Part shown: positions 1,517 through 25,252 of the stretch, piece by piece | Position numbering within the stretch: position 1 is the first letter of the stretch | How the letters are laid out: each line of letters opens with the position of its first letter | Assembly: GCA_036339465.1 (NCBI GenBank) | Contig: JAYZAY010000077.1 | Location: forward strand, 1-25,404 | Reading direction: 5' to 3' | Source: Myxococcota bacterium | GTDB taxonomy: Bacteria > Myxococcota > XYA12-FULL-58-9 > JABJBS01 | DNA length: 25,404 nt | Program-made: the position numbers and the translations under genes | The notes under the pieces: generated by a model | What the model saw: the letters and a program-made list of their open reading frames with translations, nothing else | What the model was told of the DNA's origin: nothing | Databases searched by the model: none

Positions 1517-1631
1517 GTCCTCCGGTTTTCGCTCTCCACTGGCCTGAACCACGAAACAGGCCTCTCTACAAAGTTGATTGACTCTGGGGCGACGAGACCC
1601 CACCAAACCTGTTGCCATATTGAGGTCGCCT

Positions 1632-2450
1632 GTGCGAATGCTTTTAGCCATCTCCTACCATCGACTTGCCTGTGGGATCGGGGCCTTATTGATTGGCCTC
1701 GCTTTTTCCCAGACCAGTCTGGCCGCCAATGTGGATCCTGTTGCCAAGGGTCTGAAAATTGCCCAAGAAAATGATATCGCCAATACCGGTTTTACCACCG
1801 ACCAATCCACCATGGAAATGACCCTCGTGAATGCCCATGGTGACGTGGTTTTTCGTAAAATGAAAAGCTGGGTTCTTGAGGGGGCGGCGCAAGGGGATCG
1901 ATCGCTTGTCCAATTTGTAGCGCCCGCAGATGTGAAAGGCACGCGTATGCTGACCCATTCAAAAAAGGTGGGCAGTGACCAACAGTGGCTCTACTTGCCC
2001 GCGATTAAACGGGTTAAACGCATCAGTTCTAGAAATAGGTCGGGATCCTTTATGGGAAGCGAATTTGCGTACGAGGACTTGGGGAGCCAGGAACTCGAAA
2101 AATATCATTATCAATGGCTGGCCGACGAAATCGCAGAGGGGAGGGCGCTTTGGAAACTCCAACGGATCCCCGTGGACAAGAAATCGGGCTATAGCAAACA
2201 AGAAATCTGGATCGATAAAGCCTATCGAGGTGCGATTCGCGTCGATTATTACGACCAAAAAGGAGACCTCCTCAAAACCGCTTCCTTCGACGCCTACAAA
2301 CAATACGGGAAATACTGGCGCCCCAACAAAATACACATGCGAAATCACCAGACGCGGAAGCAATCGGTCCTGGTTTGGAAAGATCGGGTTTTGGGAAAAG
2401 CCCTCGAAGTGGAAATGTTTGAGAGCTCTAGCCTAGAAGACGAGGAATAG
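1632..2450 (+). CDS. LolA-like 'outer membrane lipoprotein-sorting protein' family periplasmic protein
   Basis: Signal peptide (ALLIGLAFSQTSLA) and family motifs FVAPADVKGT, QWLYLPAIKRVKRI, SFMGSEFAYEDL and DYYDQKGDLLK. Start is GTG 1632 or ATG 1638 after GAGGT; the ORF track starts at 1578. Confidence 0.88.
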   Translation: MRMLLAISYHRLACGIGALLIGLAFSQTSLAANVDPVAKGLKIAQENDIANTGFTTDQSTMEMTLVNAHGDVVFRKMKSWVLEGAAQGDRSLVQFVAPADVKGTRMLTHSKKVGSDQQWLYLPAIKRVKRISSRNRSGSFMGSEFAYEDLGSQELEKYHYQWLADEIAEGRALWKLQRIPVDKKSGYSKQEIWIDKAYRGAIRVDYYDQKGDLLKTASFDAYKQYGKYWRPNKIHMRNHQTRKQSVLVWKDRVLGKALEVEMFESSSLEDEE

Positions 2451-2457
2451 CCCACCG

Positions 2458-3747
2458 ATGCGTGCGTGCTTTGTTTTATCTCTGCTCTTCACTCTCTTTT
2501 TGGCCCCATCTACGGCGCTTACGGGGGTGACAAGTCAGGGGGAGTTAGGCGTCTCCGGACGAGCCTTTTTACCCGACCATAACGATGACTCCGAGGACTG
2601 GGGCCTTACTGTCAACAGCCGACTCCGAGCAGACCTCAAATACAAGCCATGTCGGGCCAGAGTTCGGATTTTTGGCAGGGTGGATTCTCAAGACAGCGAA
2701 CGCAGTTTTCTCACCTTAGAAGAAGCCTGGTTCCAAATTGGGAATCGCACCATGACCCTTCGCGCTGGGTTCGACATGGTTAATTGGACGGTCACAGAAG
2801 CGTTTCATCCAGCCGATATTGTCAACAGTCGTAATCTCGACAGTGACCTTCAAAACCACGAAAAATTGGGGGAACCTTCCATTCGATTGAGGTGGCGTTA
2901 CGGTGAAGGCGCATGGGTTGGGTATTTCATGCCTACGTTTATCAAACCGAATTTTCCGTCACCAAGCTCCCGGCTGAACTTCTTCAGTCAGATTGGTGGG
3001 GCGACCTACCAAATCGCAAGGGTCCATGAGAAGGGAACCATCCATTCCGATGACGATGCTTACCCATGGATACCCCAAGGTGCGATTCGCTGGAACCACG
3101 CATTTGAAGACCTCGATCTCAGTTTCCATGTTGTCCATCATCTAGACCGATCCCTAGGGTGGCCGGCCCTCCACGCAAATACTCGGGATCCGCATTTACT
3201 CTTTCATCCCCAAACCCAAATTGGTGGCACCTTGCAATGGGCCTTTGAGGGACTTCTCACCAAAGTAGAGTGGGCCGCAAAGAGAACTTGGTTAAGTGAG
3301 GATAAGAAATATTATCTGCCATTTGGGCACCCGGCTAAGGCCTATGGCCTCCTGGCCCTCGGTTTCGAATACAGTTTGAGTCATGGCAATGGCAGTGAAA
3401 GCACCCTGCTTATGGAAGGGCAAAGTGTCGTGGGTATCTCCCGATCCCAAGCTCGCGAGTTGGAAATTTTCCAGGGAGACGTCCTGCTGGCCTACAGACA
3501 CGCGTTCAACGATGCTTCGAGCCGCGAAATCCGCTTAAGTATGTTGGGAGATGTGGAATATTTCAATGGCCTTATTCTCGGTGCCCACTACCAGGAACGC
3601 CTTTGGGATGATTTCGTTATCAGCGTGGATCTTCAACTCTTTTACGCGGAGAAGTCACCTGAGCACAATGAGCCTGATTTCAAGAGGAGTCTCAGTGGTC
3701 TACGGGATAGCGATTATATTCAGGTGGCCATGACCAGATACTTTTAA
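2458..3747 (+). CDS. Probable outer-membrane beta-barrel protein
   Basis: Signal peptide, amphipathic aromatic-rich strands and a C-terminal BAM-type signal ending in Phe (YIQVAMTRYF). Sits between the LolA-like and MMPL genes. Confidence 0.72.
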   Translation: MRACFVLSLLFTLFLAPSTALTGVTSQGELGVSGRAFLPDHNDDSEDWGLTVNSRLRADLKYKPCRARVRIFGRVDSQDSERSFLTLEEAWFQIGNRTMTLRAGFDMVNWTVTEAFHPADIVNSRNLDSDLQNHEKLGEPSIRLRWRYGEGAWVGYFMPTFIKPNFPSPSSRLNFFSQIGGATYQIARVHEKGTIHSDDDAYPWIPQGAIRWNHAFEDLDLSFHVVHHLDRSLGWPALHANTRDPHLLFHPQTQIGGTLQWAFEGLLTKVEWAAKRTWLSEDKKYYLPFGHPAKAYGLLALGFEYSLSHGNGSESTLLMEGQSVVGISRSQARELEIFQGDVLLAYRHAFNDASSREIRLSMLGDVEYFNGLILGAHYQERLWDDFVISVDLQLFYAEKSPEHNEPDFKRSLSGLRDSDYIQVAMTRYF

Positions 3748-3765
3748 GGACTAGGAACGAATATT

Positions 3766-6159
3766 ATGTATACTGCAGATTCTGTTCAACCACCCTTGGT
3801 GGGCCGCGTCGTTATCAACTATCTTTGCGACCATCCGATCCGGGCCATGATTTTTGCCATTCTATTTTTTCTTTGCCTATTGCCGGGGCGTGAGTTCCTC
3901 AAACCCGACTTCACGCACACGGGATTTTTCTACGATGATGATCCCATGTTGTTAGAATTCGAAAAATTTGAGCGCCAATTTGGGAATGATGATGCCATGA
4001 TCGTTGCGATTCATAGTCCCTCGGGCATCTTTGACCAGGATTCCGTGAACCTCATCCATGACGTGACCGTCGAACTGTGGAAGGTGCCAGAAGTCATACG
4101 CGTGGATTCCCTATCGAACTACAATTGGGTTCATGCCGAAGAGGACGACATTATGGTGGACCCCTTCCTACCCGACGACGAAGAGCCCACCGAGGCATTT
4201 CTGGAAGAGCGCAAGAATATAGCGCTGAATCACGAAGTTTTACCCGACTACCTCATCAGTCGAGATGCGAAAACGGCCATGGCCTTCGCTCGGATTAAAC
4301 CGGGATTCGAGGTCGCTCCGGATGCCGAAGCTATTGTGGAATCTGTTCGTGCCATCGCCAAAAAATATCAGATCGGAGACCACAAACTCTATGTGACAGG
4401 TGGGCCAGCCATTACCTACGGATTCCAAGAAGCGGCCGTTGGTGATTTGGAAACCATCGTGCCCTTGGTTGTATTTATGATTGTCTTTTTCCTAGCCGCC
4501 ACCTTGAGGAGAGTCTCTGGGATCCTGCTTTCCTTTACCGTGGTGATTTTTTCCACGGTCGCTGCATTGTCGCTGATGGGCTGGTTGGGTTTTGAAATGA
4601 CCAACGGCACCGCCATTTTGCCACAGATCTTGTTGGCCATTGGCATCGCGGATGCCGTTCATATTCTGGTGACCTATTATCGTGCCTATGCCGATGGTCT
4701 AAAACGAAAAGATGCCGTGCGTTATAGCCTCAATAAAAATTTCGTGCCCACCTTACTTACCAGTATTTCAACCTCCATTGGTTTTTTCAGTTTGGCGAGT
4801 GCGGATATCAAAAGCTTGGTGGGTCTTGGAACGACCGCAGGTTTTGGGGTTTTACTCGCTTGGTTCTTTACCTATTTCATTTTGGGTCCCCTGATGCTCT
4901 TAATTCCTGTCAAAGCGGCGGTGGTTCCAAGAGACAAACAAAAGTCGCGTTATGAAAGTCACGGTCGAATTGTGGATGTGCTTCATCGCCATCGTTCACC
5001 CATCATCGCCGTTTTCATCCTTTTAACCGGAGCGGCGGGCTTGGTTGCGAGCAAGAATGAGATTTCGTCTGATCCATTCCTCTATTTTCGCGAAGGCTTT
5101 CCCCTTCGGGTGGCCAGTGATTTCATCGACGAGAACGTGGGAGGTGTGCGTCAATTGGAAATCGTGATCCGAAGCGGTGAAGAAGAAGGTGTCAAATATC
5201 CCGACTTCCTGGCCGTGGTCGAAGACTTTCAAAAATGGATCGAGGCTAGCATTCCCGAAGTCACACGCACCATCTCCATTGTGGATATTCTCAAATCCAC
5301 CCATCGCTCCCTTCATGGAGACGACGAGGCCTTTTACAAACTTGCCGATAGTCCCGAAGCCATTGCTCAGGAGCTCTTTCTCTACACCATGAGCCTACCC
5401 CAGGGCATGGACATCAACGACCGCATCACCGTGAAGAATGATGCGATGCGCTTAAGCGTCTTGTGGACGCTCTCCAATTCCGCGCGCATCATGGCGGAGA
5501 TTGCACGTATTGAAGCCAAAGCCATTGAGCTGGGTCTCGATATTACCACCACCGGCAAGGGTAAACTCTATCAAGCCATGAACGGCTATGTGGTGGAATT
5601 ATTTATAAAGTCAATCTCCATTGCACTGTTGCTCATTAGCTTGCTTCTCGCGGTGGTTTTTCGGTCTCTCAAACTCGGACTCATTGCCTTGGCCTCCAAT
5701 TGCATTCCACTGATCATGGGTGGTGCCGTGCTCTATTTTTTGGGACATTCATTGGACGTTGGCACCGTGCTGGTAAGCAGTGTCTGCCTGGGTATCGCGG
5801 TGGATGATACCATTCACATCCTTTCTAATTACAATCGACTTAGGCAGACAGGAATGGCCCCTCAGCAAGCGATGACTGAGGTTTTCAACCATACGGGCCC
5901 GGCTTTGGTGCTGACAACTTTAATTCTCGTGGCAGGTTTCGGGACTTTTGCGCTGGCCACCTTTATTCCCAATCTCTATTTCGGGGTAATGTGCGCCATC
6001 ATCCTCACCGTGGCCCTTTTTACCGATTTCACCTTCTTACCGGCTCTTCTCACCGCCGCGGTGCCCGAGCCCAAGTCCGATTCCGAGCCCGATTCCGAGC
6101 CCGATTCCGAGTTTGAGGGGCAAGAGAGCAAATTGCAGCCCACATCCTTTGGTTCTTAG
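3766..6159 (+). CDS. MMPL/RND-superfamily lipid transporter
   Basis: 797 aa with two repeats of 1 TM + periplasmic domain + 5 TM. Proton-relay motifs AIGIADAVHI and LGIAVDDTIHI. Confidence 0.93.
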   Translation: MYTADSVQPPLVGRVVINYLCDHPIRAMIFAILFFLCLLPGREFLKPDFTHTGFFYDDDPMLLEFEKFERQFGNDDAMIVAIHSPSGIFDQDSVNLIHDVTVELWKVPEVIRVDSLSNYNWVHAEEDDIMVDPFLPDDEEPTEAFLEERKNIALNHEVLPDYLISRDAKTAMAFARIKPGFEVAPDAEAIVESVRAIAKKYQIGDHKLYVTGGPAITYGFQEAAVGDLETIVPLVVFMIVFFLAATLRRVSGILLSFTVVIFSTVAALSLMGWLGFEMTNGTAILPQILLAIGIADAVHILVTYYRAYADGLKRKDAVRYSLNKNFVPTLLTSISTSIGFFSLASADIKSLVGLGTTAGFGVLLAWFFTYFILGPLMLLIPVKAAVVPRDKQKSRYESHGRIVDVLHRHRSPIIAVFILLTGAAGLVASKNEISSDPFLYFREGFPLRVASDFIDENVGGVRQLEIVIRSGEEEGVKYPDFLAVVEDFQKWIEASIPEVTRTISIVDILKSTHRSLHGDDEAFYKLADSPEAIAQELFLYTMSLPQGMDINDRITVKNDAMRLSVLWTLSNSARIMAEIARIEAKAIELGLDITTTGKGKLYQAMNGYVVELFIKSISIALLLISLLLAVVFRSLKLGLIALASNCIPLIMGGAVLYFLGHSLDVGTVLVSSVCLGIAVDDTIHILSNYNRLRQTGMAPQQAMTEVFNHTGPALVLTTLILVAGFGTFALATFIPNLYFGVMCAIILTVALFTDFTFLPALLTAAVPEPKSDSEPDSEPDSEFEGQESKLQPTSFGS
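6077..6111 (+). repeat. In-frame 12-bp tandem repeat (CCGATTCCGAGC) x~3 encoding the SDSEPDSEPDSE tail of the MMPL protein
   Basis: Copies start at 6077, 6089 and 6101 (the last is 11 bp). Confidence 0.9.
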
Positions 6160-6830: not shown

Positions 6831-6977
6831 ATTAGGGTGCTTTGGTTTCCTGTCTTGCCGAACTGTTTTAACGGTGACACGTTGTTTCGAGCAACGATCC
6901 TAGTAAAACCCACCAAATCAGTTGATCTTAGGTCAGGGATTGGCGGATAAGGATAAAGAGTAGGGAAGGGGAGAGGC

Positions 6978-8192: not shown

Positions 8193-8202
8193 GGAATATT
8201 CA

Positions 8203-9447: not shown

Positions 9448-9455
9448 GGCCAAAA

Positions 9456-12056: not shown

Positions 12057-14870
12057 ATGGTGACACAGCGTGCCGAAGTGTCGGAAGTCGTTTCTTCCCC
12101 GGATAATTCGAAGTTACCCGGGGTCGTGATTGCAGATGTGGCTCTGGAGGCCGGGGAGGGTCGAATTGGTGGTAAGGCCATGGGTTTGGCCAAGTTGGTG
12201 GGAGCTGGAGCACCTGTACCACCGTGGTTTGTCGTTCCCACGGAATATTTCACTGCCCATGTTACTCAGGTGGAAGTGGCGGCTGCCATTGATTCATCTT
12301 TGGCCCCACTCCATCACCTCGATATGAACGATCCACTTTCGTTGAAGGCGGTTCAAAAAGCCTCCGAAACAATTCAGGCGGCAATTTGCAGGGCTCCAAT
12401 TCCCGGTCAACTAGAAGCAGATGTGGTGAGCCAACTTGGAGGTATCGGGCCTGGTCCATTTGCGGTGAGGAGTTCCATGGTGGGTGAGGACAGTGCTTCT
12501 CACTCCTTTGCCGGACAGCTCGACAGTTTCTTGTTTCAAAAAAGCAATGGGGAGGTTGTTGACTCAATTCGAGATTGCTGGGCTTCGGCCTTTGGTGACC
12601 GTTGCTTGGCTTATCACATGCGGGCAGATTTGCCGCTGACTGGTATCCGTGTGGGGGTGGTGGTCCAGAGGATGATTGATGGCCAGGTTTCGGGGGTCTT
12701 GTTTACGGCAAATCCCGTGAATGGTGAACGGGAAGAATGTTTACTTACCGCAGCATGGGGCCAAGGTGAAGGAATCGTTTCGGGGCTTTGCAACACCGAC
12801 GAATTCGTGTGGCAACACGGCGGACAAGAGCTTTTTGCGACACTTGTGGATAAAGACATTAAGGTTGCGGCGAAGCCCAACGGTGAAGCAGGCACGGTGG
12901 AAATGGAAGTTGATGCCGCTGACCGCAAGCGACGATGTTTGGATGAATCACAGGTCGCTCATATTTGTGGGGAAGGGGTTCGTATTGCTGAAAAATTTGG
13001 TTTGCCCCAAGATATTGAATGGACCATCGAAAACAACCAGGTGTATATTGTCCAAGCTCGTCCCATTACTTCGCTGCCTTTGCCATTGAATAAAGATGGT
13101 CCTGTCGTGGTTTGGGACAACAGCAATATCCAGGAAAGTTATTGTGGTGTGACTACGCCACTGACTTTTTCTTTTGCATCTCGCTCCTATTATACCGTCT
13201 ACCGCCAAACCGCCTTGGCGATGAGTGTTCCGACGCAATTGCTAGACAACAACGATTTGGTTCTTCGCAACTTACTGGGACTCATTAGAGGGCGCGTTTA
13301 TTACAATATCAACAATTGGTATAAGGGGTTGCTCCTTTTGCCATCATTTGGAACCAACAAATCCGATATGGAACGGATGATGGGGCTTCAAGATCCCGTG
13401 GACTTTGTGGACGACCGGGAGATGGGGCTTATGGAGAAACTCAAGTTGCTTCCTTTGATGTTGAAGGTGGTTTGGAATCTCATGGGGGCATTTCGGCGAC
13501 TCAAGGTATCAGTTCAGGGTTTTCTCGACCGTTTCGACCGCGCCTACAAAAAAATCGATAGAGATTCATTGGCGACAGCCTCGTTTTCAGAGCTCATGGG
13601 GCATGTGAATATGCTTCAAAAAGATATCATTGATAAATGGGACACTCCGATTGTTAACGATTTCTATGTGATGATGACCAATGGACGTTTGGCTCGGGCG
13701 GTTGAGGGTTCGGGAGTGGATGATCCAAACTTGGTTCAGAATAATCTCATTGCGGGGGAAGAAGGGATTGAGTCCACTGAGCCGACGCGGTTTCTGATGC
13801 GGTTGGCCAAGGAAGCAGGCGCTAATTCAGCCCTAGGCGATGTGATTAAGAGGGGAGGGCCTTTGGAGGTTTTGGCGGAACTCAAGGAAAAATTCCCTGC
13901 GTATTTCGCGAAAATTGATGATTATATTGAGCGCTATGGTGACCGAACCATCGGCGAATTGAAGCTTGAGACTATTTCATTACGGGAAGACCCAAGTTTT
14001 GTGGTGGAGGTTATTCGAAACTATATGGACCGACCCGATTTGGACCCCGACGCTCTGGTGGAAAACGAGAAGAAGATGCGATTTGATGCGGAAGCATTGA
14101 TGCGTTCAAAGTTGAATCCCCTTAAGGTGGGTCGTTTTATGAAAACCTTAGACCAGGCGCGGGCGGCGGTAAAAAACCGCGAAAACATGCGCCTGACGCG
14201 GACGCGGGCGTTTGGTCTCTATCGGGATATTTATCGCAATATAGGACGACACCTCGTGGCGGGTGAGAAATTGCTTCACCAGCGGGATGTCTTTTATCTC
14301 ACCGTAGAGGAAATCGAGCAATACCATGAAGGCCGAGCGATCACGACGGACTTTAAGGGTGTGGTTGCGGCAAGGAAGGCGGAATTTGATTCCTTCGAAG
14401 ACCAAGATTTGCCCCACCACTTTACAACCATAGGGCCGGTTTATCAGGGGAATAACTATGTTTACGATGGCAATGTTGAGGTTGATCCCGATGCGACCAC
14501 TTTGGTGGGGATTGGTTGTTATCCCGGTATAGTGGAATCTGATGTTCGGGTTATTTCTTCGCCCAAAGATGAACTCAGTGTGAACGGAAAAATCTTGGTG
14601 ACGATGAGAACCGATCCTGGGTGGGCGCCACTCTTTCCTACCACCAGTGGTATCTTGGTGGAAAGGGGAAGTACCCTCTCGCATTCGGCGGTGGTGGCGC
14701 GAGAGCTTGGTATTCCTGCGGTGGTGGGTATTGCGGGGCTTACGGAAATTGTTCAGGATGGTGAAAATGTCCGGATGGACGGCGGTAAGGGGACGGCAAT
14801 AAGATTAGACGCCGAAACCGAATCTGAATCTCCATCAGCAGCTGCACCTGACCCCGAAGATGCTTGTTAA
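12057..14870 (+). CDS. PEP-utilizer/PPDK-superfamily ATP-dependent phosphotransferase with RPH/PigC-like architecture
   Basis: ATP-grasp motifs GGKA, AVRSS, EDSASHSFAGQ, VVVQRM, GQGEGIVSG, PQDIEW and QARPIT; central domain starting WDNSNIQESYCGVTTPLT; C-terminal phosphohistidine domain TDPGW...GSTLSHSAVVARELGIP. Confidence 0.92.
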   Translation: MVTQRAEVSEVVSSPDNSKLPGVVIADVALEAGEGRIGGKAMGLAKLVGAGAPVPPWFVVPTEYFTAHVTQVEVAAAIDSSLAPLHHLDMNDPLSLKAVQKASETIQAAICRAPIPGQLEADVVSQLGGIGPGPFAVRSSMVGEDSASHSFAGQLDSFLFQKSNGEVVDSIRDCWASAFGDRCLAYHMRADLPLTGIRVGVVVQRMIDGQVSGVLFTANPVNGEREECLLTAAWGQGEGIVSGLCNTDEFVWQHGGQELFATLVDKDIKVAAKPNGEAGTVEMEVDAADRKRRCLDESQVAHICGEGVRIAEKFGLPQDIEWTIENNQVYIVQARPITSLPLPLNKDGPVVVWDNSNIQESYCGVTTPLTFSFASRSYYTVYRQTALAMSVPTQLLDNNDLVLRNLLGLIRGRVYYNINNWYKGLLLLPSFGTNKSDMERMMGLQDPVDFVDDREMGLMEKLKLLPLMLKVVWNLMGAFRRLKVSVQGFLDRFDRAYKKIDRDSLATASFSELMGHVNMLQKDIIDKWDTPIVNDFYVMMTNGRLARAVEGSGVDDPNLVQNNLIAGEEGIESTEPTRFLMRLAKEAGANSALGDVIKRGGPLEVLAELKEKFPAYFAKIDDYIERYGDRTIGELKLETISLREDPSFVVEVIRNYMDRPDLDPDALVENEKKMRFDAEALMRSKLNPLKVGRFMKTLDQARAAVKNRENMRLTRTRAFGLYRDIYRNIGRHLVAGEKLLHQRDVFYLTVEEIEQYHEGRAITTDFKGVVAARKAEFDSFEDQDLPHHFTTIGPVYQGNNYVYDGNVEVDPDATTLVGIGCYPGIVESDVRVISSPKDELSVNGKILVTMRTDPGWAPLFPTTSGILVERGSTLSHSAVVARELGIPAVVGIAGLTEIVQDGENVRMDGGKGTAIRLDAETESESPSAAAPDPEDAC

Positions 14871-14890
14871 GTTGGACGGGATATTTCTCT

Positions 14891-15625
14891 ATGGTGAAAC
14901 TTAAGTCCCCTCGGCGGGAGTTTTTTCCCGTGGTCGAGATGACCTCAGCTCAATGGGATTATATTTTGATGATGGCCAAGGATGTCCTAGGTCGTGTTGA
15001 GGGTTTAGAAGCGAGTATCAAGGAGCGCGAGAGGGTGGCTCTCTATTGGGACGAGGACGACACCATTGTGGGCCTTATTGCTATCGATTTACGCGAAGAA
15101 ACCTTCAATGGTCGCAAGGTTGTCTCGATTTATACCGGTAATACCTGGCTTCACGACAAATGCCGCGGAATGAATCTCGTGCCTAAATTGGCGCTTCGTT
15201 GTTATGTAGAGGCTTTGCTTCGTTGGCCGTTTCACCATCATTATTGGTTTTTTGGGAGTAATAGCTATCGCAGTTATCTCACCATGACCCGGAATTTTGC
15301 GCTCTGTTATCCCCAAAGAGAAACCCAAGCCCCAAAGTGGGAGACTGCTTATATTCAATATCTCGCGGAGGCTTTTTACGGGGCCAAAATCAATCCGGAA
15401 ACGTTTGTTTACGAAACTTCGGGTGGCCGTTCATTTAAGGAATATGCAGGGGGGGTACCAGATAGCCTCAACGGAGATTTGGATATCGAATATTTTTTGA
15501 AGATTAACCCGGGGTTTTCCGAAGGGGATAAGGTGATGTGTTTAGGCCCGCTGACCATGGGTAATTGGCGAAAGATAGGCATACGCTCTCTGAAGAGAAA
15601 GTTTGGTGTTCTGCAGGGATTTTAG
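14891..15625 (+). CDS. Hypothetical protein, probable GNAT-like acyltransferase fold
   Basis: SIYTGNTWLHDKCRGMNL resembles GNAT motif A. Start is ATG 14891 or TTG 14864 (the latter overlaps the upstream stop). Confidence 0.55.
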   Translation: MVKLKSPRREFFPVVEMTSAQWDYILMMAKDVLGRVEGLEASIKERERVALYWDEDDTIVGLIAIDLREETFNGRKVVSIYTGNTWLHDKCRGMNLVPKLALRCYVEALLRWPFHHHYWFFGSNSYRSYLTMTRNFALCYPQRETQAPKWETAYIQYLAEAFYGAKINPETFVYETSGGRSFKEYAGGVPDSLNGDLDIEYFLKINPGFSEGDKVMCLGPLTMGNWRKIGIRSLKRKFGVLQGF

Positions 15626-18727: not shown

Positions 18728-19693
18728 TTAACCAAACCAAACAACAGGATGCGTATGGAAAAGTGCGGTGAGAAGTGTGATGACAAAAATAACTGTTGCG
18801 CCGCCCGATGAAGCTTCACAGAGAGTGGCCAATTTGGGGGTTGGGTTTGAAATAAACTTAATGAATGTTCCAAAACCTAAGAGAATGGCTAAGCTCAATG
18901 GGATCCACCAACCCCAGGTTGGCGCGGTTGGTAATATCAGCTCGAGAATGTTGAAAGCCAAGAATGCATTGAGCACGACGAAAATACAGAGGGTCATAGG
19001 AGCACCCTTTAGACCTAGCACCTTGGTGTATGAATCGATGGTGTCGCGTTCGTCTTGTGGAGCTTTGATTTTGCGGCTTACTTCCCCGGCAAAAGAGGTG
19101 AAGAAACCCAGTGTTACTATCCAAAGGGTTGGTTCTATGGGAAGTGGGGCATCATGTGCGGCCATGGTCATATACCATACGAACGCGATGGGAACGACGA
19201 GCATATGGGAAATGGCATAGAGGAACAGCCGTTTTTCGAGCCACGCGCCGAGAAAGAATTCCTTTGCCATCAATAGGCTCCAGCCAATGGTGATGAACCA
19301 GATTTGGGTGATCGGGCCCATTCCTCCGTCTAGGTAGAGGGAGACCGAAAGTTGAATGCAGATCCCGAGGGCTCCGACCTTTTTCAGATCGCTCAAGGTG
19401 ATGATACCGCTTTGAAGCACTCGATTGGGGTGATTTTGGCAATCCAGTTCATAGTCTTTATGTTCATCGAATACGCGAAGCATCAAATAAAAAAACCAGC
19501 ACGCCAGGTATCCCAAAATTTGAGGAATTCCAATTTCCAACGATTCCTTGCCAATCAAATGTTGGGCGTAAAGGTGGGGCAAGAGAAAGACGAGCAAGAA
19601 AGCGATGGCGGTTGCCGGTGGGAACCGTTCATTCATCCAACCGAGAAATCGGCTTGGAAAGGGGCTGTTTTTGCTGAGGGGCTGATTCGACAT
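18728..19693 (-). CDS. UbiA-superfamily intramembrane prenyltransferase-like protein (divergent)
   Basis: Polytopic membrane protein. First Asp-rich motif LRVFDEHKDYELDCQNHPNRVLQSG; second-motif region EVSRKIKAPQDERDTIDSYTKVLG. Confidence 0.8.
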   Translation of the reverse strand: MSNQPLSKNSPFPSRFLGWMNERFPPATAIAFLLVFLLPHLYAQHLIGKESLEIGIPQILGYLACWFFYLMLRVFDEHKDYELDCQNHPNRVLQSGIITLSDLKKVGALGICIQLSVSLYLDGGMGPITQIWFITIGWSLLMAKEFFLGAWLEKRLFLYAISHMLVVPIAFVWYMTMAAHDAPLPIEPTLWIVTLGFFTSFAGEVSRKIKAPQDERDTIDSYTKVLGLKGAPMTLCIFVVLNAFLAFNILELILPTAPTWGWWIPLSLAILLGFGTFIKFISNPTPKLATLCEASSGGATVIFVITLLTALFHTHPVVWFG

Positions 19694-19961: not shown

Positions 19962-22760
19962 CTAATCTTCCAAATATTCCGTTGCATGTGGATCGAGTTT
20001 AATCATTCTTCGTAAATTCATGTAGACGTGTTCGATGAAACCATAATTTCTGAAGGTGTGTGCCATGAGATACATGGCCAAGCGATTGATTCCGAAATCC
20101 CGGACGGCGAGTGAAAATCCTCTCTTCCAAGTGTCTTGGTCAATCTTGTCACCGGTGGCGCTCTCAAGTTTGCGGCGATGGCGTTCGGAATATTTTACGA
20201 TGAGTTCGTAGTCGTAGTTCCGCGGCAGGGTGAAACATAGAAACTCTACCAAATCTCTTTGAGGGATGTGGAGCGTGGCGAGTTCCCAGTCGTATGCACA
20301 CAATCTTAGGTTGTCATTGGCGTCTTTTCGAAAGCACATATTTCTGGGGTTAAAGTCGTTATGGATTAGGGTTCTTGGCATTTTCTCGATTTCGGACCAC
20401 CACTCTCCGATGTTGGAAACTATCTTCTGGTGAACGGAGAGATCGCCATGGCTGAACCAATCTGGAAACTCTTGGTAGGCGTGATACGCGAGGGTTTCCC
20501 ACAGGCTGTGCATTTCTTGCATGTCGTTGGCGGTCATGACGGTTCCCAGCCACTCTTGTTGTTGTAACTCTTCTTCTCGCCTCCACCAGATGGATTGGAG
20601 CTCAGCTAGGCCATCGATGGCTGCATTGATATGTTTGTCTGTCCAGTTAGTGGTATCATCGGCGGTATTGATGAGTTCCATATTGTCGAGTTTTTCCATA
20701 ACCACAGCGTAGGCTTCTCGGGTGTCGTCTCGAAAAGTGCGGTAAATTTCCGGTGTGTATCGGAGGAAGCGTGGATCCGATTGTTCATAAATTGCCAGTT
20801 CCCGAATATGGCATTTCTGGAAGCCAAGGCGGTGTTTATTCTTGTCGTGAGCAGATGCGAGTTTGGCGTCGCACATCCGGGCCATGGCATTCACCATCAC
20901 AATCACTTCCTGATCATTGGGTTTAATTTTGATCAAGACTTCTTGTTCTGTCTGACCGCTTTTTGCGTGACTGAGGCTTAGCTTGAAAGGAAAGAGTCCT
21001 ACCAATTTCTTTACTCGGCGAGCTGTCAGTTCAGTGATAATACTACTTCCCATCTTCATTTCGATGGGCTCTACCTTATGGACTTGAATGCCGGTATCTT
21101 GCAGGAGCTTTTGTACGCCGGGGGTGAAGAAAGCGGGGGTGAGGTCTTTGGCGGTAAACCAATCGACAGGTCGGTTGCGTCCCAGTCGCTCGTGGGCCGA
21201 CGCGAATTGGCCGCTTGCTACGGCCGAGAGCGTCGAGAGGTCTAGGGCCAAACAGAATCCCGCGATAATTTCAGCCAACCGTCCCGATTTTCGGACGCCT
21301 GCGCAATCGAGTATTTCTAGATAGTTTTGTTGGTGGGGCAGATTGGTTCCGCCTCCCACACTTCCCACAATGAGCGCGGGTAGGTCCATTGAGGCGTAGA
21401 GCCCGTCGTCGATTGATTCGATGACCAATTGCCCGATGGAAGATTCATGAACAGAGGCGATGTCTTGTCCTGTGGCTGTAAACATAGCCCCGATAACGTT
21501 GGCAATGTTGATGTTGTAACCCAGCGTTCCGATGGCCACGCTTCCACGAAGGCTACGTTTGTACATATCTTCCAGTTGATCTGGGTCTACTTTCAAGATT
21601 TTCCTGAGAATCGGTCCGGGTATGAAACATTCCGCAGTGACTCGGGTTCCTCGACCCAGTAGGTAAGATTGAAAATTGGCTTTCTTATCGCCACTCATAT
21701 TGGCATCGATGACGAAGTTTTGAATCTGAATGTCTGGGAAGTGGGTCATTTGTTCAAGAATCCAATTGCATGCCTTCCAGGTGCAGGTGGTGGTCATGTT
21801 TTGACCGGCCGCGTCTCCTGTTTCGTAGATGAAATGGGCATTGATGTCAGAGCCTACTTGATTGGGATAAACTTCTTTGAGGTTGGCGTAATTAGAGACC
21901 AACCGGGTTTGAGCTCGGATTTCATCGATATGATCGGTCATCCAGTCTCTTAGTTTACTGGCTTGTTCGGTGTTGCCCAATCTAAAGTAGGGCACCCGAA
22001 TCATCCTTTGTCTTAGGACCTTGGTTTGAACACCTCCCCCTTCGGTGATGGCGGTGGCGCCGCGTGTGGCCGAAGCCACCAGGGCACCTTCCGAAGTTCC
22101 CATGGGCGCATAGATGATACCCCGAACATTTTGGCCTCGGAAGAAAAGTGGGCCAGCCAAACCAACCGGGATTTCAACGCTACCCACGAGGTTTTCGATG
22201 TTTCCTGTTAACTTTTCCACTGGAAGACTCGTGTTTGTTATCTTATCTAATTTCTGTCCCGTGAATTCCCGAATGAAGGTGAGCCGCTCTTGACGTGCCT
22301 CTTCGGTATAATGGCCTCTGGCTGGGATTTTTTGAATCGAGTCGGGGATTTCTCCGGTGTCATATTCTTCGGCCGATTTCACGTTTTTCAATTCGCGAAA
22401 AATCTGCCATAAGCAGGAGCGACTGTCGGCATCGGATGCTTCGAGCCCCAGGACCCATGAGTCAGCGTCAGCGTCTTTAATGTGGCGAATGACCATGAGG
22501 CGAAGCGTCCGATTCAGTGTGGCTGTTCCTACCACGATGTTCTTTAAAAGCGTTCCCGCAGAGGGGATATTCGATATGTCTTTTGAAACCGAGACCGCAA
22601 CTCTAATGCCGACGCCGCCGGTTGAGATATCGAGAACTTTTCCAAGTACCCGCTCATTGCCTAGAGTAAGCACCACATAAGCACTTCGCATACCTCCGTA
22701 GGTATCGTCTGTTTCATCCATGGTGATTCGGTGGTGCGTGCGGTTGTCAATGACAGACAT
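19962..22760 (-). CDS. Three-domain fusion: PilZ-like domain / class I HMG-CoA reductase / APH-choline-kinase-like phosphotransferase
   Basis: PilZ motifs RTHHR and DISTGG. HMGR motifs ENLVG, PMGTSEGALVAS, TGDAAGQNM, GDKK, TGQD, VGGGT and catalytic His in SAHERL. Kinase motifs LIKIK, LIHNDFNPRN and YDWE. RBS AAGGAG. Confidence 0.9.
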   Translation of the reverse strand: MSVIDNRTHHRITMDETDDTYGGMRSAYVVLTLGNERVLGKVLDISTGGVGIRVAVSVSKDISNIPSAGTLLKNIVVGTATLNRTLRLMVIRHIKDADADSWVLGLEASDADSRSCLWQIFRELKNVKSAEEYDTGEIPDSIQKIPARGHYTEEARQERLTFIREFTGQKLDKITNTSLPVEKLTGNIENLVGSVEIPVGLAGPLFFRGQNVRGIIYAPMGTSEGALVASATRGATAITEGGGVQTKVLRQRMIRVPYFRLGNTEQASKLRDWMTDHIDEIRAQTRLVSNYANLKEVYPNQVGSDINAHFIYETGDAAGQNMTTTCTWKACNWILEQMTHFPDIQIQNFVIDANMSGDKKANFQSYLLGRGTRVTAECFIPGPILRKILKVDPDQLEDMYKRSLRGSVAIGTLGYNINIANVIGAMFTATGQDIASVHESSIGQLVIESIDDGLYASMDLPALIVGSVGGGTNLPHQQNYLEILDCAGVRKSGRLAEIIAGFCLALDLSTLSAVASGQFASAHERLGRNRPVDWFTAKDLTPAFFTPGVQKLLQDTGIQVHKVEPIEMKMGSSIITELTARRVKKLVGLFPFKLSLSHAKSGQTEQEVLIKIKPNDQEVIVMVNAMARMCDAKLASAHDKNKHRLGFQKCHIRELAIYEQSDPRFLRYTPEIYRTFRDDTREAYAVVMEKLDNMELINTADDTTNWTDKHINAAIDGLAELQSIWWRREEELQQQEWLGTVMTANDMQEMHSLWETLAYHAYQEFPDWFSHGDLSVHQKIVSNIGEWWSEIEKMPRTLIHNDFNPRNMCFRKDANDNLRLCAYDWELATLHIPQRDLVEFLCFTLPRNYDYELIVKYSERHRRKLESATGDKIDQDTWKRGFSLAVRDFGINRLAMYLMAHTFRNYGFIEHVYMNLRRMIKLDPHATEYLED

Positions 22761-22954: not shown

Positions 22955-24340
22955 TCACGTTGGTTTATTCTCTTTCTTACTGTGTTTTGTGAGGCGCATG
23001 CCAACGGAGTTTTTGGGGCGTAGGGTAATGGAGGGATGTAGCTTCAGTTGGAAGTCATCGGCCAATCTGAAGTCATAGTTTTTGAGAATCAGAGCAAGAA
23101 CAATACTGGCTTCTAAGAACGCAAACTCTCTTCCGATGCAGAGTCGTTGCCCCGCTCCAAAGGGGATAAATGCGTAACGTTTTTCCCCTCGAGGTTCATT
23201 CTGCTCAAATCTTTCCGGCCAGAACTTTTCGGGGTCTGTGTAGAGATCTGGGTTTCGGTGAAGCGCGTAGGGGCTAATGCTGACGCTTGCGCCTTTGGGA
23301 ATTTTCACACCGCAAACGACGTCATCTTCAGTGGCTTTTCGACCCATGAGCCATATGGGGGGATAGAGGCGAAGGCTCTCTTGAAGTACGAGATTGAGAT
23401 AGGGGAGTAGGGAAAGGTTTTCCAAATTGGGTGGTCTGTCTATGCATACTTCTTCGATTTCTCGTCGGAGTTTTTCTTTGCATTTTGGGTTTTTGGCGAG
23501 GAGGAGGAGTGTCCAGGTTAAGAGGGCCGCGGTGGTATCGTGGCCGGCGAGGAATACGGTCATGACTTCGTCACGTATTTGTTGGTCATTCATGCAATAA
23601 CCTTCTTCTTCATCTTGGGTACGAATCAATTCGTCTAAAAGGTCGTTTCTCGGTTTTTCTTCTTTTCGTCGCTGGGCAATCATTCCCATGACCACCGTAT
23701 CGAGTTTACTTAAGAGCGTGTCAAATTGCTCTGATTGGGGTTTCATTCGGTTGAGTACCTTTCCCAAGGGGCCTCGTCCTGCGTCCAATAGATGCATGAT
23801 TTTGTCGATGGATTGGGTGACCTTATCGGCCTCGCCTTCAACCGAGGTGCCAAACATGGTTTGACTGATAACCGACATGGTAATGCGCGTCATTTCTTTG
23901 AAATAGTCAACGGGGCTCCCCGTTTTGGTGGCTTCGGTCCATGTTGAAAATCGAGCCCTGGTTACGGATTCCGTAATTTCTGCGACTCGGAGCATATGCT
24001 TTTTATGGAATGCCGGTTGGACAATCCGCCGGTTCTTACGCCAGTATTCTCCCTCTGAGATCAAGATGCCATTTCCCAAAACCTGACTGAGCCGGGCAAA
24101 AGTTCGAGTTTTACGGGAGTAGTTAGCGGCATTCTTCACGAGTACATGTTTGACTCCCTCTGGGTCATTAACCAAATACATATTGTAGCCGAAGGCTTTC
24201 ATGGTGGATACGGGTCCCAGGGCGGCACCCTTCATCATCATGGGTATGGGCCAGATCTGAATGGCTGGCCAGTGTCCAAGGATCGGCAAGCCGGGGATCG
24301 TGGGCGCTTTCTTTGAAGGTGTGTTGATATCGGAGTTCAC
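22955..24340 (-). CDS. Cytochrome P450
   Basis: I-helix AGHDTT, ExxR (ESLR), PERF and heme ligand FGAGQRLCIG. Confidence 0.97.
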   Translation of the reverse strand: MNSDINTPSKKAPTIPGLPILGHWPAIQIWPIPMMMKGAALGPVSTMKAFGYNMYLVNDPEGVKHVLVKNAANYSRKTRTFARLSQVLGNGILISEGEYWRKNRRIVQPAFHKKHMLRVAEITESVTRARFSTWTEATKTGSPVDYFKEMTRITMSVISQTMFGTSVEGEADKVTQSIDKIMHLLDAGRGPLGKVLNRMKPQSEQFDTLLSKLDTVVMGMIAQRRKEEKPRNDLLDELIRTQDEEEGYCMNDQQIRDEVMTVFLAGHDTTAALLTWTLLLLAKNPKCKEKLRREIEEVCIDRPPNLENLSLLPYLNLVLQESLRLYPPIWLMGRKATEDDVVCGVKIPKGASVSISPYALHRNPDLYTDPEKFWPERFEQNEPRGEKRYAFIPFGAGQRLCIGREFAFLEASIVLALILKNYDFRLADDFQLKLHPSITLRPKNSVGMRLTKHSKKENKPT

Positions 24341-24343
24341 GGG

Positions 24344-25252
24344 CTAACTTCCTTTTGGGTCCACGGTTGCCAAATGGCTTCTTATTTTCTGATTTGTGTC
24401 ATCGGATTGTTCTTGGTGTGCCCAGTGACCGGCGTTGTCTAGATAATCGACTTCGAAATTGCGCACATATTTTTTGTAGCTCGATGGATCCGCAAGTTCG
24501 GGCTCCAGGAAGGGATCGTCTAGAGCCCAGATCAATTTGGTGGGAACCTCGATCATCGATGAGACTTTGTTACGGATCCGTAATTTGGCACGGTAGTAGT
24601 TGATGCCCCCTTGGAGTCCTCGTGTGGCAACTTGATCGATATAGGGCAGTAGATTCTCATCGGTAAATGGTTTTTTATTGATGGCCCGTTTTCGGTAGAT
24701 CCGATGCACAAAATCAGCCGGGTCTTTTCGAACCCAATCTTCGGGATAATTCGGGATCTGAAAGAAGAACATGTACCATGATTTCTTCAATTGTTTCCAG
24801 GTGCGAAGGGCTTTGGAAAATACCTTGGGATGGGGGCAATTGATGGTGGTGAGGCTTTTGAGTCGGGTAGGGTGGCATTGAGCAAAATGCCAAACCACGT
24901 TGCCTCCCAGGTCATGACCCACCAGATGGGCTTTAGAGATATCGAGGGTGTCTAATAGCTCGCGAATGTCTTCCACGAGATGGCCCTGGATTGAGTATTT
25001 TCGCCAATCGGAGGGAGCATCGGTTTGGCCATAGCCTCGCATGTTGGGCGCAATGACGTGGTAGTCAGGCAATAGGTTTTCGAGTTGATAGCGCCAGGTC
25101 CAAGCCAAATCTGGAAATCCGTGCACGAATAGTATTGGGGCTCCCTTTCCCCCCTCAAATACCTCCATATTGAGCCCCGATGGCAATTTGAGCATGCGTT
25201 GGGTGATGCCGGCGGGAAAGGAGGGAATTGTCGACTGGCCGGTCATGGGCAT
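24344..25252 (-). CDS. Alpha/beta-hydrolase, epoxide hydrolase family
   Basis: HGFP oxyanion motif, RGYGQT, nucleophile Asp in GHDLGG, lid tyrosines SWYMFFFQ and NYYRA, and catalytic His in AGHW. Confidence 0.9.
   Translation of the reverse strand: MPMTGQSTIPSFPAGITQRMLKLPSGLNMEVFEGGKGAPILFVHGFPDLAWTWRYQLENLLPDYHVIAPNMRGYGQTDAPSDWRKYSIQGHLVEDIRELLDTLDISKAHLVGHDLGGNVVWHFAQCHPTRLKSLTTINCPHPKVFSKALRTWKQLKKSWYMFFFQIPNYPEDWVRKDPADFVHRIYRKRAINKKPFTDENLLPYIDQVATRGLQGGINYYRAKLRIRNKVSSMIEVPTKLIWALDDPFLEPELADPSSYKKYVRNFEVDYLDNAGHWAHQEQSDDTNQKIRSHLATVDPKGS

Follow-up and report, generated by a model that had tools for sequence, protein, structure and literature searches.

The window, by which we mean the whole stretch of DNA analysed, comprises 25,404 nucleotides from a Myxococcota bacterium (contig JAYZAY010000077.1 of assembly GCA_036339465.1). 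Its minus strand carries a single unbroken open reading frame of 932 residues (P0001), in which a PilZ-like domain is followed by a reductase domain of the HMG-CoA reductase (HMGR) fold and a kinase domain of the APH/choline kinase (ChoK) fold. The features of this gene and its surroundings are as follows.

19962..22760, minus strand: whole fusion gene, PilZ-like domain plus HMGR-fold reductase plus APH/ChoK-fold kinase (932 aa, P0001)
22386..22760, minus strand: PilZ-like N-terminal domain, residues 1-125, with RxxxR (R7, R11) and DxSxxG (D44, S46, G49) motifs
21177..22295, minus strand: putative thioester reductase of the class I HMGR fold, residues 156-528, catalytic E189, K359, D433 and H523
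19965..21155, minus strand: small-molecule kinase of the APH/ChoK fold, residues 536-932, with K611/K613, H800-x-D802...N807 and D824-W-E
18728..19693, minus strand: UbiA-like membrane transferase, directly downstream of the fusion (NCBIfam PRK05951 prenyltransferase, E 2.7e-38, below cut-off)
22955..24340, minus strand: cytochrome P450, read in the same direction as the fusion and 195 bp upstream of it
24344..25252, minus strand: alpha/beta hydrolase, in the same direction, with its end 3 bases ahead of the P450 start
12057..14870, plus strand: dikinase with PPDK_N and PEP-utilizers domains, rifampin-phosphotransferase/PigC/PEP-synthase-like, 937 aa (NF004881, 900.7 bits, cut-off 883)
3766..6159, plus strand: MMPL/RND-type exporter with a sterol-sensing-like domain
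2458..3747, plus strand: 429-aa protein between the LolA-like and MMPL genes
1578..2450, plus strand: LolA-like lipoprotein-sorting/lipid-carrier protein (PF17131, E 6.8e-61)

The initial annotation of the window had described an HMGR fused to a protein-kinase-like small-molecule kinase, with a domain of approximately 400 residues after the catalytic histidine, and both points were borne out. The interval that it assigned (19962-21170) corresponds approximately to residues 531-932, which is the kinase domain, and its motifs are all present and intact: IKIK is I610-K613, HNDFNPRN is H800-N807, DWE is D824-E826, and the reductase histidine is H523. The PilZ-like domain at residues 1-125 had been overlooked. 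Pfam detects both the reductase and the kinase families in P0001 and in 115 of its 120 best database relatives (approximately 800-930 aa), and the same layout occurs in frame at 37 further genomic loci from many phyla, isolates among them. K611, K613, H800, D802, N807, D824, and H523 are unchanged across 25 full-length relatives, and the fusion clade spans at least ten phyla. Because hundreds of independent assemblies contain the fusion, as do the genomes of isolates (tractable Photorhabdus, Streptomyces, and Paenibacillus strains), it is a real gene, and neither a frameshift nor an assembly artefact, the concern that the annotation itself had raised. The full-text literature searched (outside subscription journals, and including passages of PMC12419801, PMC1262709, and PMC9500038) contained no description of the HMGR-kinase fusion, its operon, or the thioester reductase-kinase protein discussed below, and we found no function for the fusion family in it.

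The reductase domain (residues 156-528) matches profile positions 2-368 of 368 in Pfam HMG-CoA_red (PF00368, E 3.6e-106). Its closest solved structure is the archaeal HMGR of Methanothermococcus thermolithotrophicus (6hr7, E 5.4e-74), and it shares with 6hr7 and human HMGR (1dq8) the same fold over the whole catalytic domain. The catalytic residues E189, K359, D433, and H523 are invariant in 25 relatives and at 38 loci, and are present in 51-52 of 52 representatives. All the polar residues that contact HMG in solved class I reductases are also retained (human R590 is R233, S684 is S356, D690 is D358, K691 is K359, K692 is K360, and N755 is N421), and the tetrad and these contacts are as conserved as in bona fide class I reductases. 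The domain nevertheless departs from class I HMGRs in several respects. It scored 285 bits against the TIGR00533 equivalog, below the cut-off of 441.8, and the fusion-clade reductases (43 rows) are separated from standalone class I enzymes (39 rows) with an SH-aLRT support of 100. Three pocket positions, whose roles we took from part of one published account (PMC9500038), differ consistently from human HMGR: H752 is replaced by N418, L853 by T510, and G849 by L506. Asn, Thr, and Leu occupy these positions in 98-100% of the 43 fusion-clade rows, including all 38 fused loci, whereas His, Leu, and Gly occupy them in 82-100% of the 39 standalone class I enzymes. The equivalent of K735, which forms a salt bridge to the HMG carboxylate, was considered as a further discriminator, but it is uninformative, as it is variable in standalone bacterial class I enzymes too. 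Three actinomycete loci (L018, L022, and L039) carry fusion-clade reductases as standalone proteins, and within 10 kb of them we found neither a split-off kinase nor mevalonate genes among ORF calls that, at high G+C, are in many cases probably spurious.

Within the kinase domain, residues 619-857 match Pfam APH (PF01636, E 3.4e-7, 30.7 bits, cut-off 23.2), EcKL, and DUF1679, and all 25 relatives match APH. The Lys, HxD..N, and DWE positions are invariant in the 33 kinase domains derived from the loci. A search of the kinase half against the sequences of solved structures gave no match at E<=0.01. A structure model (pLDDT 94.4) has the bilobal kinase fold with a helical substrate lobe, and it aligned with Z scores of 16-19 to 50 listed entries, all of them small-molecule kinases or structural-genomics relatives. 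The best matches, all of them kinases of small-molecule hydroxyl groups and at Z 17-19, were corramycin phosphotransferase, glucosamine kinase, type-II homoserine kinase, choline kinases, and MTR kinase. Over 273-319 aligned residues, the domain thus has the fold of the group that comprises choline/ethanolamine kinases, APH enzymes, type-II homoserine kinases, and 5-methylthioribose kinases, with the Lys, HxDxxxxN, and D-x-E motifs in common; at 9-14% identity to that group, however, it constitutes a family of its own. Neither P0001 nor the isolated kinase domain matched the GHMP family or TIGR00549 (mevalonate kinase).

The N-terminal domain is less uniform. R7, R11, D44, S46, and G49 are present in 15, 20, 18, 18, and 15 of 25 relatives, respectively, and PF07238 (E<=0.01) was detected in 4 of the 25 (best E 4.5e-7) and not in P0001 itself. 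Judging from these motifs, the PilZ-like domain probably places the enzyme under c-di-GMP control.

A census of the kinase family yielded 544 representatives at E<=1e-30, and we read the architectures of the best 150. Among these, 57 kinases follow an HMGR domain, 55 follow PP-binding plus NAD_binding_4 domains (a thioester reductase, with TIGR01746 over its cut-off), and 38 are kinase-only proteins of up to 535 aa. Of the best 150, 112 thus have the kinase on the C-terminal side of a thioester reductase, and the two reductase folds are unrelated. In three fused proteins the chain begins with a domain of the fatty-acyl-AMP ligase type: P0200 and P0223 have the order A-T-HMGR-K, and P0162 the order A-T-R-K. 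The reductases of P0200 and P0223 share the residue signature of the window protein, although A-T-HMGR-K accounts for only 2 of the 57 HMGR-type representatives. At the single locus of an A-T-R-K operon (G297), the gene is co-stranded with a PPDK-like dikinase gene and a UbiA-like gene, the same partners as those of the HMGR type. An early tree (FastTree, kinase-only rows included) suggested repeated swaps of the reductase partner, and we set it aside: with those rows excluded, IQ-TREE placed the R-partnered kinases in one clade (SH-aLRT 99). The reductase was thus swapped once, an event that could have brought a change of substrate.

The neighbours of the fusion were compared across 38 loci. 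The dikinase is the commonest (23/38); it is missing from 15 loci, 10 of which are long enough to have revealed one. A UbiA-like homologue lies within 10 kb at 21 loci, AMP-binding genes were counted at 16, CDP-OH transferase genes at 15, and GNAT genes at 13. Homologues of the MMPL exporter and the LolA-like protein lie near the fusion at 9 and 5 loci, respectively, and the 429-aa protein, which has no Pfam or NCBIfam match, keeps its position at L008 and L009. Frequent partners are an acyl-CoA ligase, a GNAT acyltransferase, a BtaA-like DUF3419 protein, the MMPL/LolA-like export set, and a CDP-alcohol phosphatidyltransferase fused to a CdsA/CarS-like cytidylyltransferase, whose halves resemble PssA/archaetidylserine synthase and CdsA/CarS, all below the family cut-offs. 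The acyl-CoA ligase, GNAT, and CDP-alcohol transferase genes are absent from this window, and elsewhere in the assembly the ligase and DUF3419 are represented by distant copies only, on other contigs. The P450 and the alpha/beta hydrolase are particular to this window, and it is uncertain whether they belong to the module. The neighbour clusters contained no GGGP synthase, G1P dehydrogenase, or prenyl synthase, and none of HMGS, MVK, PMK, or MDD. We considered the AMP-binding neighbour as an OleC-like enzyme that would decarboxylate phosphomevalonate via a beta-lactone, and rejected this idea, as the OleC match is below cut-off and no conserved partner hydrolase was seen at the loci compared. 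These contexts are best read as gene sets for a lipid or specialised metabolite, to which the module contributes as an accessory element spread by horizontal transfer.

The interpretation that we favour, with a probability of about 0.58, is that the fusion is a reductase-kinase module which senses c-di-GMP and turns a carboxylic acid, once activated, into an alcohol phosphate for a specialised exported lipid. P0001 would be a soluble three-domain enzyme. Its HMGR-fold domain would consume two NAD(P)H in reducing an acyl thioester to the primary alcohol, as the intact catalytic tetrad suggests, and the fused kinase would phosphorylate that alcohol with ATP, as its intact motifs and its partnership with thioester reductases suggest. 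The core operon partners would be the dikinase and the UbiA-like membrane transferase, and the alcohol phosphate would then be phosphorylated again or CDP-activated and built into the exported lipid. The fatty-acyl-AMP ligase and carrier protein ahead of the reductase-kinase pair argue that a free acid is activated by adenylation; on these domain arrangements, the substrate is less likely to be HMG-CoA than an acid of fatty or lipid type that an adenylating enzyme has activated. The window protein has neither an A nor a T domain and presumably uses a CoA thioester. Among the observations that count against the lipid reading are the rarity of A-T-HMGR-K forms, the single A-T-R-K operon, the single swap of reductase, the partner genes absent from this window, and the loci without a dikinase. 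In addition, all the polar HMG-contact residues are kept, in a pocket that would have to take a long chain, and we recognised in this assembly no other way to make IPP, so that a role in mevalonate metabolism has some room here.

A more specific and rather speculative version of the lipid route, which we consider improbable as a whole, follows the logic of archaeal phospholipid synthesis on a non-isoprenoid chain under c-di-GMP control. An adenylating enzyme would activate a fatty or hydroxy-fatty acid, from which the HMGR-fold domain, recruited as an acyl-thioester reductase, would make the alcohol; the phosphate and then the diphosphate would be produced by the fused kinase and the dikinase; the UbiA-like enzyme would transfer the chain to an acceptor as an ether; and the CarS/CdsA-like plus PssA-like protein would add a head group before export by the MMPL/LolA-like set. 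The archaeal ether-lipid pathway uses a UbiA-family DGGGP synthase, the CDP-archaeol synthase CarS, and archaetidylserine synthase, and the Kennedy pathway uses choline kinase, a cytidylyltransferase, and a CDP-alcohol phosphotransferase. The operon resembles these pathways in logic only, through its UbiA-like transferase and its fused PssA-like/CarS-like partner. Such a scheme, if true, would mean that bacteria have a new way of making ether or glycerol-free lipids, and that the HMGR fold has a new role.

The initial annotation had proposed instead that the fusion couples a non-GHMP mevalonate kinase to the reductase. The architecture, the catalytic sets, and a kinase that takes the reductase's alcohol all stand; the identification of that alcohol as mevalonate does not fare as well. 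A reductase that makes mevalonate and a kinase that converts it to 5-phosphomevalonate, for a specialised product or for isoprenoids, would fit the conserved tetrad and HMG contacts and the archaeal HMGR as nearest structure. There is also a direct precedent for joining a reductase to the kinase of its product: relatives of this organism carry a class II HMGR fused to a GHMP mevalonate kinase (L082 and L084; confirmed by domain scan as the housekeeping form in G001, which holds L084). That enzyme is of another reductase class (22-24% identity) with another kinase fold, and it lies beside PMK, MDD, and IDI, which the window gene does not. Animal phosphomevalonate kinase has a thymidylate-kinase-like P-loop fold, and thymidylate-kinase-like P-loop genes adjoin the fusion in Bacteroidota and Actinoplanes contexts. 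Against these points stand the sub-threshold TIGR00533 score, the systematically altered pocket positions, the lack of HMGS in any clustered neighbourhood, the related forms with a fatty-acyl-AMP ligase and carrier protein ahead of the same reductase, and the operon of the same kind whose thioester reductase is not homologous. In addition, five fusion-bearing genomes from other groups contained neither HMGS_C (0/5) nor MDD over the cut-off (0/5). We therefore regard a mevalonate kinase as unlikely, and the best explanation is that the fusion is not the mevalonate kinase of this organism. The further proposal of a new entry route to phosphomevalonate-type intermediates was not upheld, as relatives keep a separate and complete classical cluster and the other hosts lack HMGS_C and MDD.

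A stronger form of the same idea, in which this organism gets from HMG-CoA to IPP solely by way of the fusion and its neighbours, as a non-canonical mevalonate pathway, is very improbable. The assembly (G000) has two polyprenyl synthases and one HMGR only; we found in it no IspH, IspG, or true DXS, and thus no MEP pathway, and no MDD, HMGS, or UbiD. Its sole GHMP kinase resembles a heptose-phosphate kinase, so that no classical mevalonate kinase, phosphomevalonate kinase, or decarboxylase is apparent, and tblastn searches of G000 with the HMGR-MVK, PMK, MDD, and IDI of a relative returned nothing. However, G000 is 92.8% complete in 102 contigs, and because the classical genes form one block of approximately 5 kb in relatives (MDD, PMK, class II HMGR fused to GHMP mevalonate kinase, and IDI), a single assembly gap would be enough to conceal the whole set. 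MgsA, a flank of the block in G001, likewise lacks a full-length match in G000. Beside the luciferase-like gene of G000 (the block flank in G001) lie dioxygenases, which are unrelated, and a UbiB-like kinase, with no trace of a replaced mevalonate block. Within this organism's order, the fusion is confined to one family, as an additional gene. MDD is present in 4 of 5 genomes of that family, and all four also carry the long fusion. Moreover, Photorhabdus, Oleispira, Agitococcus, and Paenibacillus carry the fusion and do not need it for IPP.

Two other readings of the kinase have still less in their favour. AMP-activated kinase phosphorylates eukaryotic HMGR, and the domain here has a protein-kinase-like fold with catalytic motifs common to protein kinases, but a regulatory kinase that phosphorylates the reductase or another protein, and no metabolite, is most improbable: all the listed structural neighbours are small-molecule kinases, and the occurrence of the kinase on an unrelated reductase fold is easier to explain if the two kinds of fusion have a small product in common than if they have a protein target in common. 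The least probable reading of all is one of resistance or self-protection, in which an APH-type antibiotic kinase accompanies a spare reductase copy, as the Pfam APH match and the corramycin phosphotransferase (the top VIA-align match, tied with many others) are set against low identity (9-14%) to any APH and constant partners that are biosynthetic and lipid genes, not resistance contexts.

The closest parallel to the favoured reading is found in carboxylic acid reductases and NRPS-type A-T-R enzymes, which likewise activate an acid first and then reduce the thioester. Kinases related to that of the window stand at the end of this A-T-R arrangement, and A-T-HMGR-K places an HMGR fold at the R position. 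A kinase step is, to our knowledge, no part of carboxylic acid reductases.

The HMGR fold is taken to serve a single purpose, in the mevalonate pathway. Here an entire clade of the fold, its catalytic centre intact, is joined to a small-molecule kinase family of its own and lies in a conserved operon of lipid type. Because operons of this type also place the kinase behind a thioester reductase that is not homologous, the arrangement suggests a general "reduce, then phosphorylate" module for converting carboxylic acids to alcohol phosphates, and the evidence points to a widespread reductase-kinase module and not to a new mevalonate kinase. The identity of the substrate would distinguish a non-GHMP mevalonate kinase from, more likely, a new lipid pathway with a new substrate class for the HMGR fold. 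Genome surveys should be cautious in taking fusion genes as evidence for a mevalonate pathway; in databases, the fusion proteins are named "HMG-CoA reductase (NADPH)" or "phosphotransferase".

The gene described in the initial annotation as an HMG-CoA reductase (HMGR) joined to a kinase proved to be one uninterrupted ORF of 932 residues:

19962..22760, minus strand, reductase-kinase fusion

Its HMG-CoA reductase domain occupies residues 156-528 (Pfam, E 3.6e-106), and residues 619-857 are covered by Pfam matches to APH, EcKL, and DUF1679. All of the motifs quoted in that annotation were located in this frame: the reductase His is H523, and the kinase motifs IKIK, HNDFNPRN, and DWE lie at 610-613, 800-807, and 824-826, respectively. 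E189, K359, D433, and H523 of the reductase and K611, K613, H800, D802, N807, and D824 of the kinase do not vary among 25 aligned full-length relatives, and the kinase catalytic set is also invariant across 33 kinase domains drawn from genomic loci. The two-domain description stands, but it overlooked a PilZ-like N terminus: residues 1-125 contain both c-di-GMP-binding motifs of PilZ (R7xxxR11 and D44xS46xxG49), and at E<=0.01 the Pfam PilZ model matches four of the 25 relatives and not the window protein itself.

The fusion is genuine and is not an artefact, a possibility that the annotation had raised. Of 8000 candidates scored in a database search, 2513 were relatives at E<=0.001, and 115 of the best 120 carry the reductase and kinase families together in proteins of approximately 800-930 residues. 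With each species represented by a single genome, a scan found 590 reductase relatives; 80 loci were kept, and the two domains lie in a single frame at 38 loci, including the window. The sources include Myxococcota, Bacteroidota, Bdellovibrionota, Thermodesulfobacteriota, Planctomycetota, and Entotheonella; Gammaproteobacteria (four Photorhabdus species, Oleispira, Bermanella, Ketobacter, and Agitococcus); Actinomycetota (Streptomyces, Nocardia, Rhodococcus, and Actinoplanes); and Bacillota (Paenibacillus and Marinicrinis). The search for the domain architecture, which had been proposed as a check, thus showed that the pairing recurs across many phyla. Databases name these relatives "phosphotransferase" or "hydroxymethylglutaryl-CoA reductase (NADPH)," and full-text literature searching found no functional study of such fusion proteins.

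A model of the kinase domain built from 33 sequences (mean pLDDT 94.4) was placed by Foldseek and VIA-align with kinases of the APH/choline-kinase type, which act on hydroxyl groups of small molecules. The structural matches included corramycin phosphotransferase, glucosamine kinase, type-II homoserine kinase, choline and ethanolamine kinases, methylthioribose kinase, and N-acetylhexosamine kinase (Z 17-19, with identities of only 9-14%), and none of them stands out as nearest. No PDB sequence matched the kinase half at E<=0.01.

With a profile restricted to the kinase domain, a search of 1.84 billion representative proteins yielded 5100 matches at E<=0.001, of which 1407 reached E<=1e-10 and 544 reached E<=1e-30. 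Among the best 150, the kinase is preceded by an HMGR domain in 57 and by a phosphopantetheine carrier and an NAD_binding_4 thioester reductase in 55 (TIGR01746 over cut-off), the fold of the latter reductase being unrelated to that of HMGR. The kinase stands alone in 38 (<=535 residues), which may be fragments or free-standing forms. The database protein P0162 has the order fatty-acyl-AMP-ligase-type adenylation domain, carrier, thioester reductase, kinase (A-T-R-K); in P0200 and P0223 the order is the same, but an HMGR fold occupies the place of the reductase. When 112 kinase domains were placed on a maximum-likelihood tree, those partnered with thioester reductases formed one clade (SH-aLRT 99), nested among the HMGR-partnered kinases under midpoint rooting; on this tree, therefore, the reductase partner was exchanged once. 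A FastTree run that included kinase-only rows suggested several exchanges and was not relied on. Among 301 genomes of the phylum, one, the large Myxococcota genome G297, contains a full A-T-R-K gene, which is adjoined by two further genes on its strand (locus L094):

L094:9783-14237, minus strand, A-T-R-K protein of 1484 aa (AMP-binding, thioester reductase, and kinase of the fusion's family)
L094:15986-16636, same strand, UbiA-like gene
L094:16617-19892, same strand, PPDK-like dikinase

This locus is a non-HMGR twin of the window's module. A dikinase and a UbiA-like enzyme also form the core company of the HMGR-type fusions. The domain orders indicate that this family of kinases is tied specifically to enzymes that turn thioesters into alcohols, and its simplest function would therefore be to phosphorylate the resulting alcohol. 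The proposal that the kinase is channelled to the reductase is supported to that extent; its choice of mevalonate as the alcohol, and hence of isoprenoid entry, fared less well.

The fusion reductase is a class I enzyme whose nearest solved structure is that from Methanothermococcus (6hr7, E 5.4e-74), and it scores 285 bits, below the NCBIfam equivalog cut-off of 441.8. A tree of 82 class I domains, all from fetched loci, has one group of 43 that comprises the fused forms together with five unfused rows; a branch with SH-aLRT 100 separates this group from 39 standalone enzymes. Among the unfused rows, L015 is truncated at a contig end, the kinase part of L014 lies in another reading frame, and no kinase was found within 10 kb of the actinomycete reductases L018, L022, and L039. 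PMC9500038 names R590, S684, D690, K691, K692, and N755 as polar HMG contacts of the human and plant enzymes. The catalytic tetrad and the polar contacts so named are common to both groups. The groups differ at three pocket or flap positions: the equivalents of human H752, L853, and G849 are Asn, Thr, and Leu in 98-100% of the fusion clade (43 rows), and at all 38 fused loci, versus His, Leu, and Gly in 82-100% of the standalone enzymes. The Asn/Thr/Leu signature is repeated in 50-52 of 52 further database representatives, and P0200 and P0223 carry the window protein's signature residues exactly. The salt-bridge Lys735 position was uninformative as a discriminator, as it varies in both groups alike.

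To survey the neighbours, we clustered the ORFs of the 38 fusion loci and searched with the cluster profiles within 10 kb. The most frequent was a dikinase of approximately 900 aa (PPDK_N and PEP-utilizers; 23 of 38 loci), from a family that includes rifampin phosphotransferase, PigC/RedH, and PEP synthase; of the 15 loci that lack it, five are contigs of <10 kb, and the other ten span enough sequence for it to have been seen. There followed a UbiA-like membrane transferase (21 loci), an AMP-binding enzyme of the fatty-acid-CoA-ligase family (16; PRK09274 over cut-off), a CDP-alcohol phosphatidyltransferase often joined to a CdsA/CarS-like cytidylyltransferase (15), a double-GNAT acyltransferase (13), an MMPL exporter (9), a LolA-like protein (5), and a BtaA-like DUF3419 protein (3). 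In the synthesis of betaine lipids, BtaA attaches an aminocarboxypropyl group to the hydroxyl of a lipid. DUF3419 is also fused into the reductase-kinase protein in P0054 and P0066 (1167-1170 aa), and is encoded beside the fusion at L017:18496-19587, L044:3837-5879, and L095:14390-15517. PKS and NRPS modules are added around the fusion in Nocardia and Rhodococcus. A second context is seen in Bacteroidota and Actinoplanes, where the fusion is accompanied by two thymidylate-kinase-like genes and an NTP_transf_5 nucleotidyltransferase:

L035:12669-17024, second context
L038:8509-13729, second context
L036:6236-6970 and 12264-13019, second context

The dikinase is also present at three of the four Bacteroidota loci; the loci of this context with a PPDK-like dikinase are L032, L038, and L043, and L035 has an FGGY kinase.

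In the window, this set of genes is scattered:

1578-6159, LolA-like gene, 429-aa gene, and MMPL gene
12057-14870, dikinase gene
before the fusion, co-directional, P450 and alpha/beta hydrolase genes (uncertain members of the set)
directly after the fusion, UbiA-like gene

Ligase, GNAT, and CDP-alcohol transferase genes were not found in the window, and the only module genes elsewhere in the source assembly are distant copies of the ligase (contig C49) and DUF3419 (C50). Between the MMPL and dikinase genes (6171-10154, plus strand) lies a SAM methyltransferase followed by a MacB-type ABC exporter, which consists of an ATPase and two FtsX/MacB_PCD permease genes. An ABC/FtsX pair also occurs close to the fusion in L034. 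The dikinase is flanked by ORFs at 10593-11702 (plus strand, 369 aa) and 14864-15625 (plus strand, 253 aa), neither of which has a Pfam or NCBIfam match.

Delivery of the acid by adenylation, and a product that feeds a specialised lipid rather than isoprenoid supply, are favoured by several observations: the HMGR fold and a carrier-dependent reductase interchange freely in one operon type, some of the proteins begin with a fatty-acyl-AMP-ligase-type domain, the operon includes an acyl-CoA ligase, the reductase pocket is changed, and other hosts lack mevalonate-pathway enzymes. To judge from the families of the neighbours, the dikinase might add a second phosphate, the UbiA-like enzyme might carry out a transfer, and CDP activation with head-group transfer, N-acylation, and then export could follow. 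Mevalonate, the substrate originally proposed for the fused kinase, is an unlikely one: the full conservation of the polar HMG contacts speaks for it, but the fusion hosts Photorhabdus khanii, Oleispira, Agitococcus, Paenibacillus oenotherae, and a Bdellovibrionales genome have no HMG-CoA source or downstream mevalonate enzyme (HMGS_C in none of the five; a diphosphomevalonate decarboxylase match over cut-off in none, with fragments only in the Bdellovibrionales genome).

The source assembly (4.17 Mb, 102 contigs, 92.8% complete) contains the fusion as its sole HMG-CoA reductase. We found in it no IspH, IspG, or true DXS of the MEP route and no HMG-CoA synthase, diphosphomevalonate decarboxylase, or UbiD; it has two polyprenyl synthases:

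C74:23718-24416, polyprenyl synthase
C62:156337-157050, polyprenyl synthase

This pattern could suggest that the fusion is the host's only isoprenoid entry, but a separate block in relatives argues otherwise. Among 26 genomes (25 relatives and the source), IspH occurs in two and a decarboxylase match in 23. In G007 (L082) and G001 (L084), the decarboxylase lies in a block with a PMK-like GHMP kinase, a type-1 IDI, and a class II HMGR fused to a GHMP mevalonate kinase (752-781 aa; TIGR00532 and TIGR00549 over cut-off):

L082:6635-8890, minus strand, class II HMGR-mevalonate kinase fusion
L084:2904-5246, minus strand, class II HMGR-mevalonate kinase fusion

This housekeeping reductase shares only 22-24% identity with the window's reductase domain. 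Open frames of ~750-820 aa around a reductase match recur across the order, whereas frames of >900 aa were confined, within the 26, to the family that the window belongs to (G001, G002, G003, and G005). These four genomes all carry the decarboxylase too, and the long frame of G001 also contains the kinase domain. By tblastn, none of the four genes of the G001 block was found in the source assembly, and the MgsA gene that flanks it has no full-length match there; a single assembly gap is the simplest, and a likely, explanation for the missing block.

The single GHMP kinase of the source assembly resembles heptose-phosphate kinase (HddA-like). Its neighbours on C51:1-9000 are a split transketolase-like pair and a B12-binding radical SAM protein, for which HpnJ was the best match but scored below cut-off; together the genes resemble a small cluster for modifying sugars or lipids. 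In the window, the cumulative GC skew stays level over 1-11 kb and climbs steadily from ~11000 to the end, the change in slope falling several kb ahead of the switch from plus- to mostly minus-strand genes (~15.6 kb).
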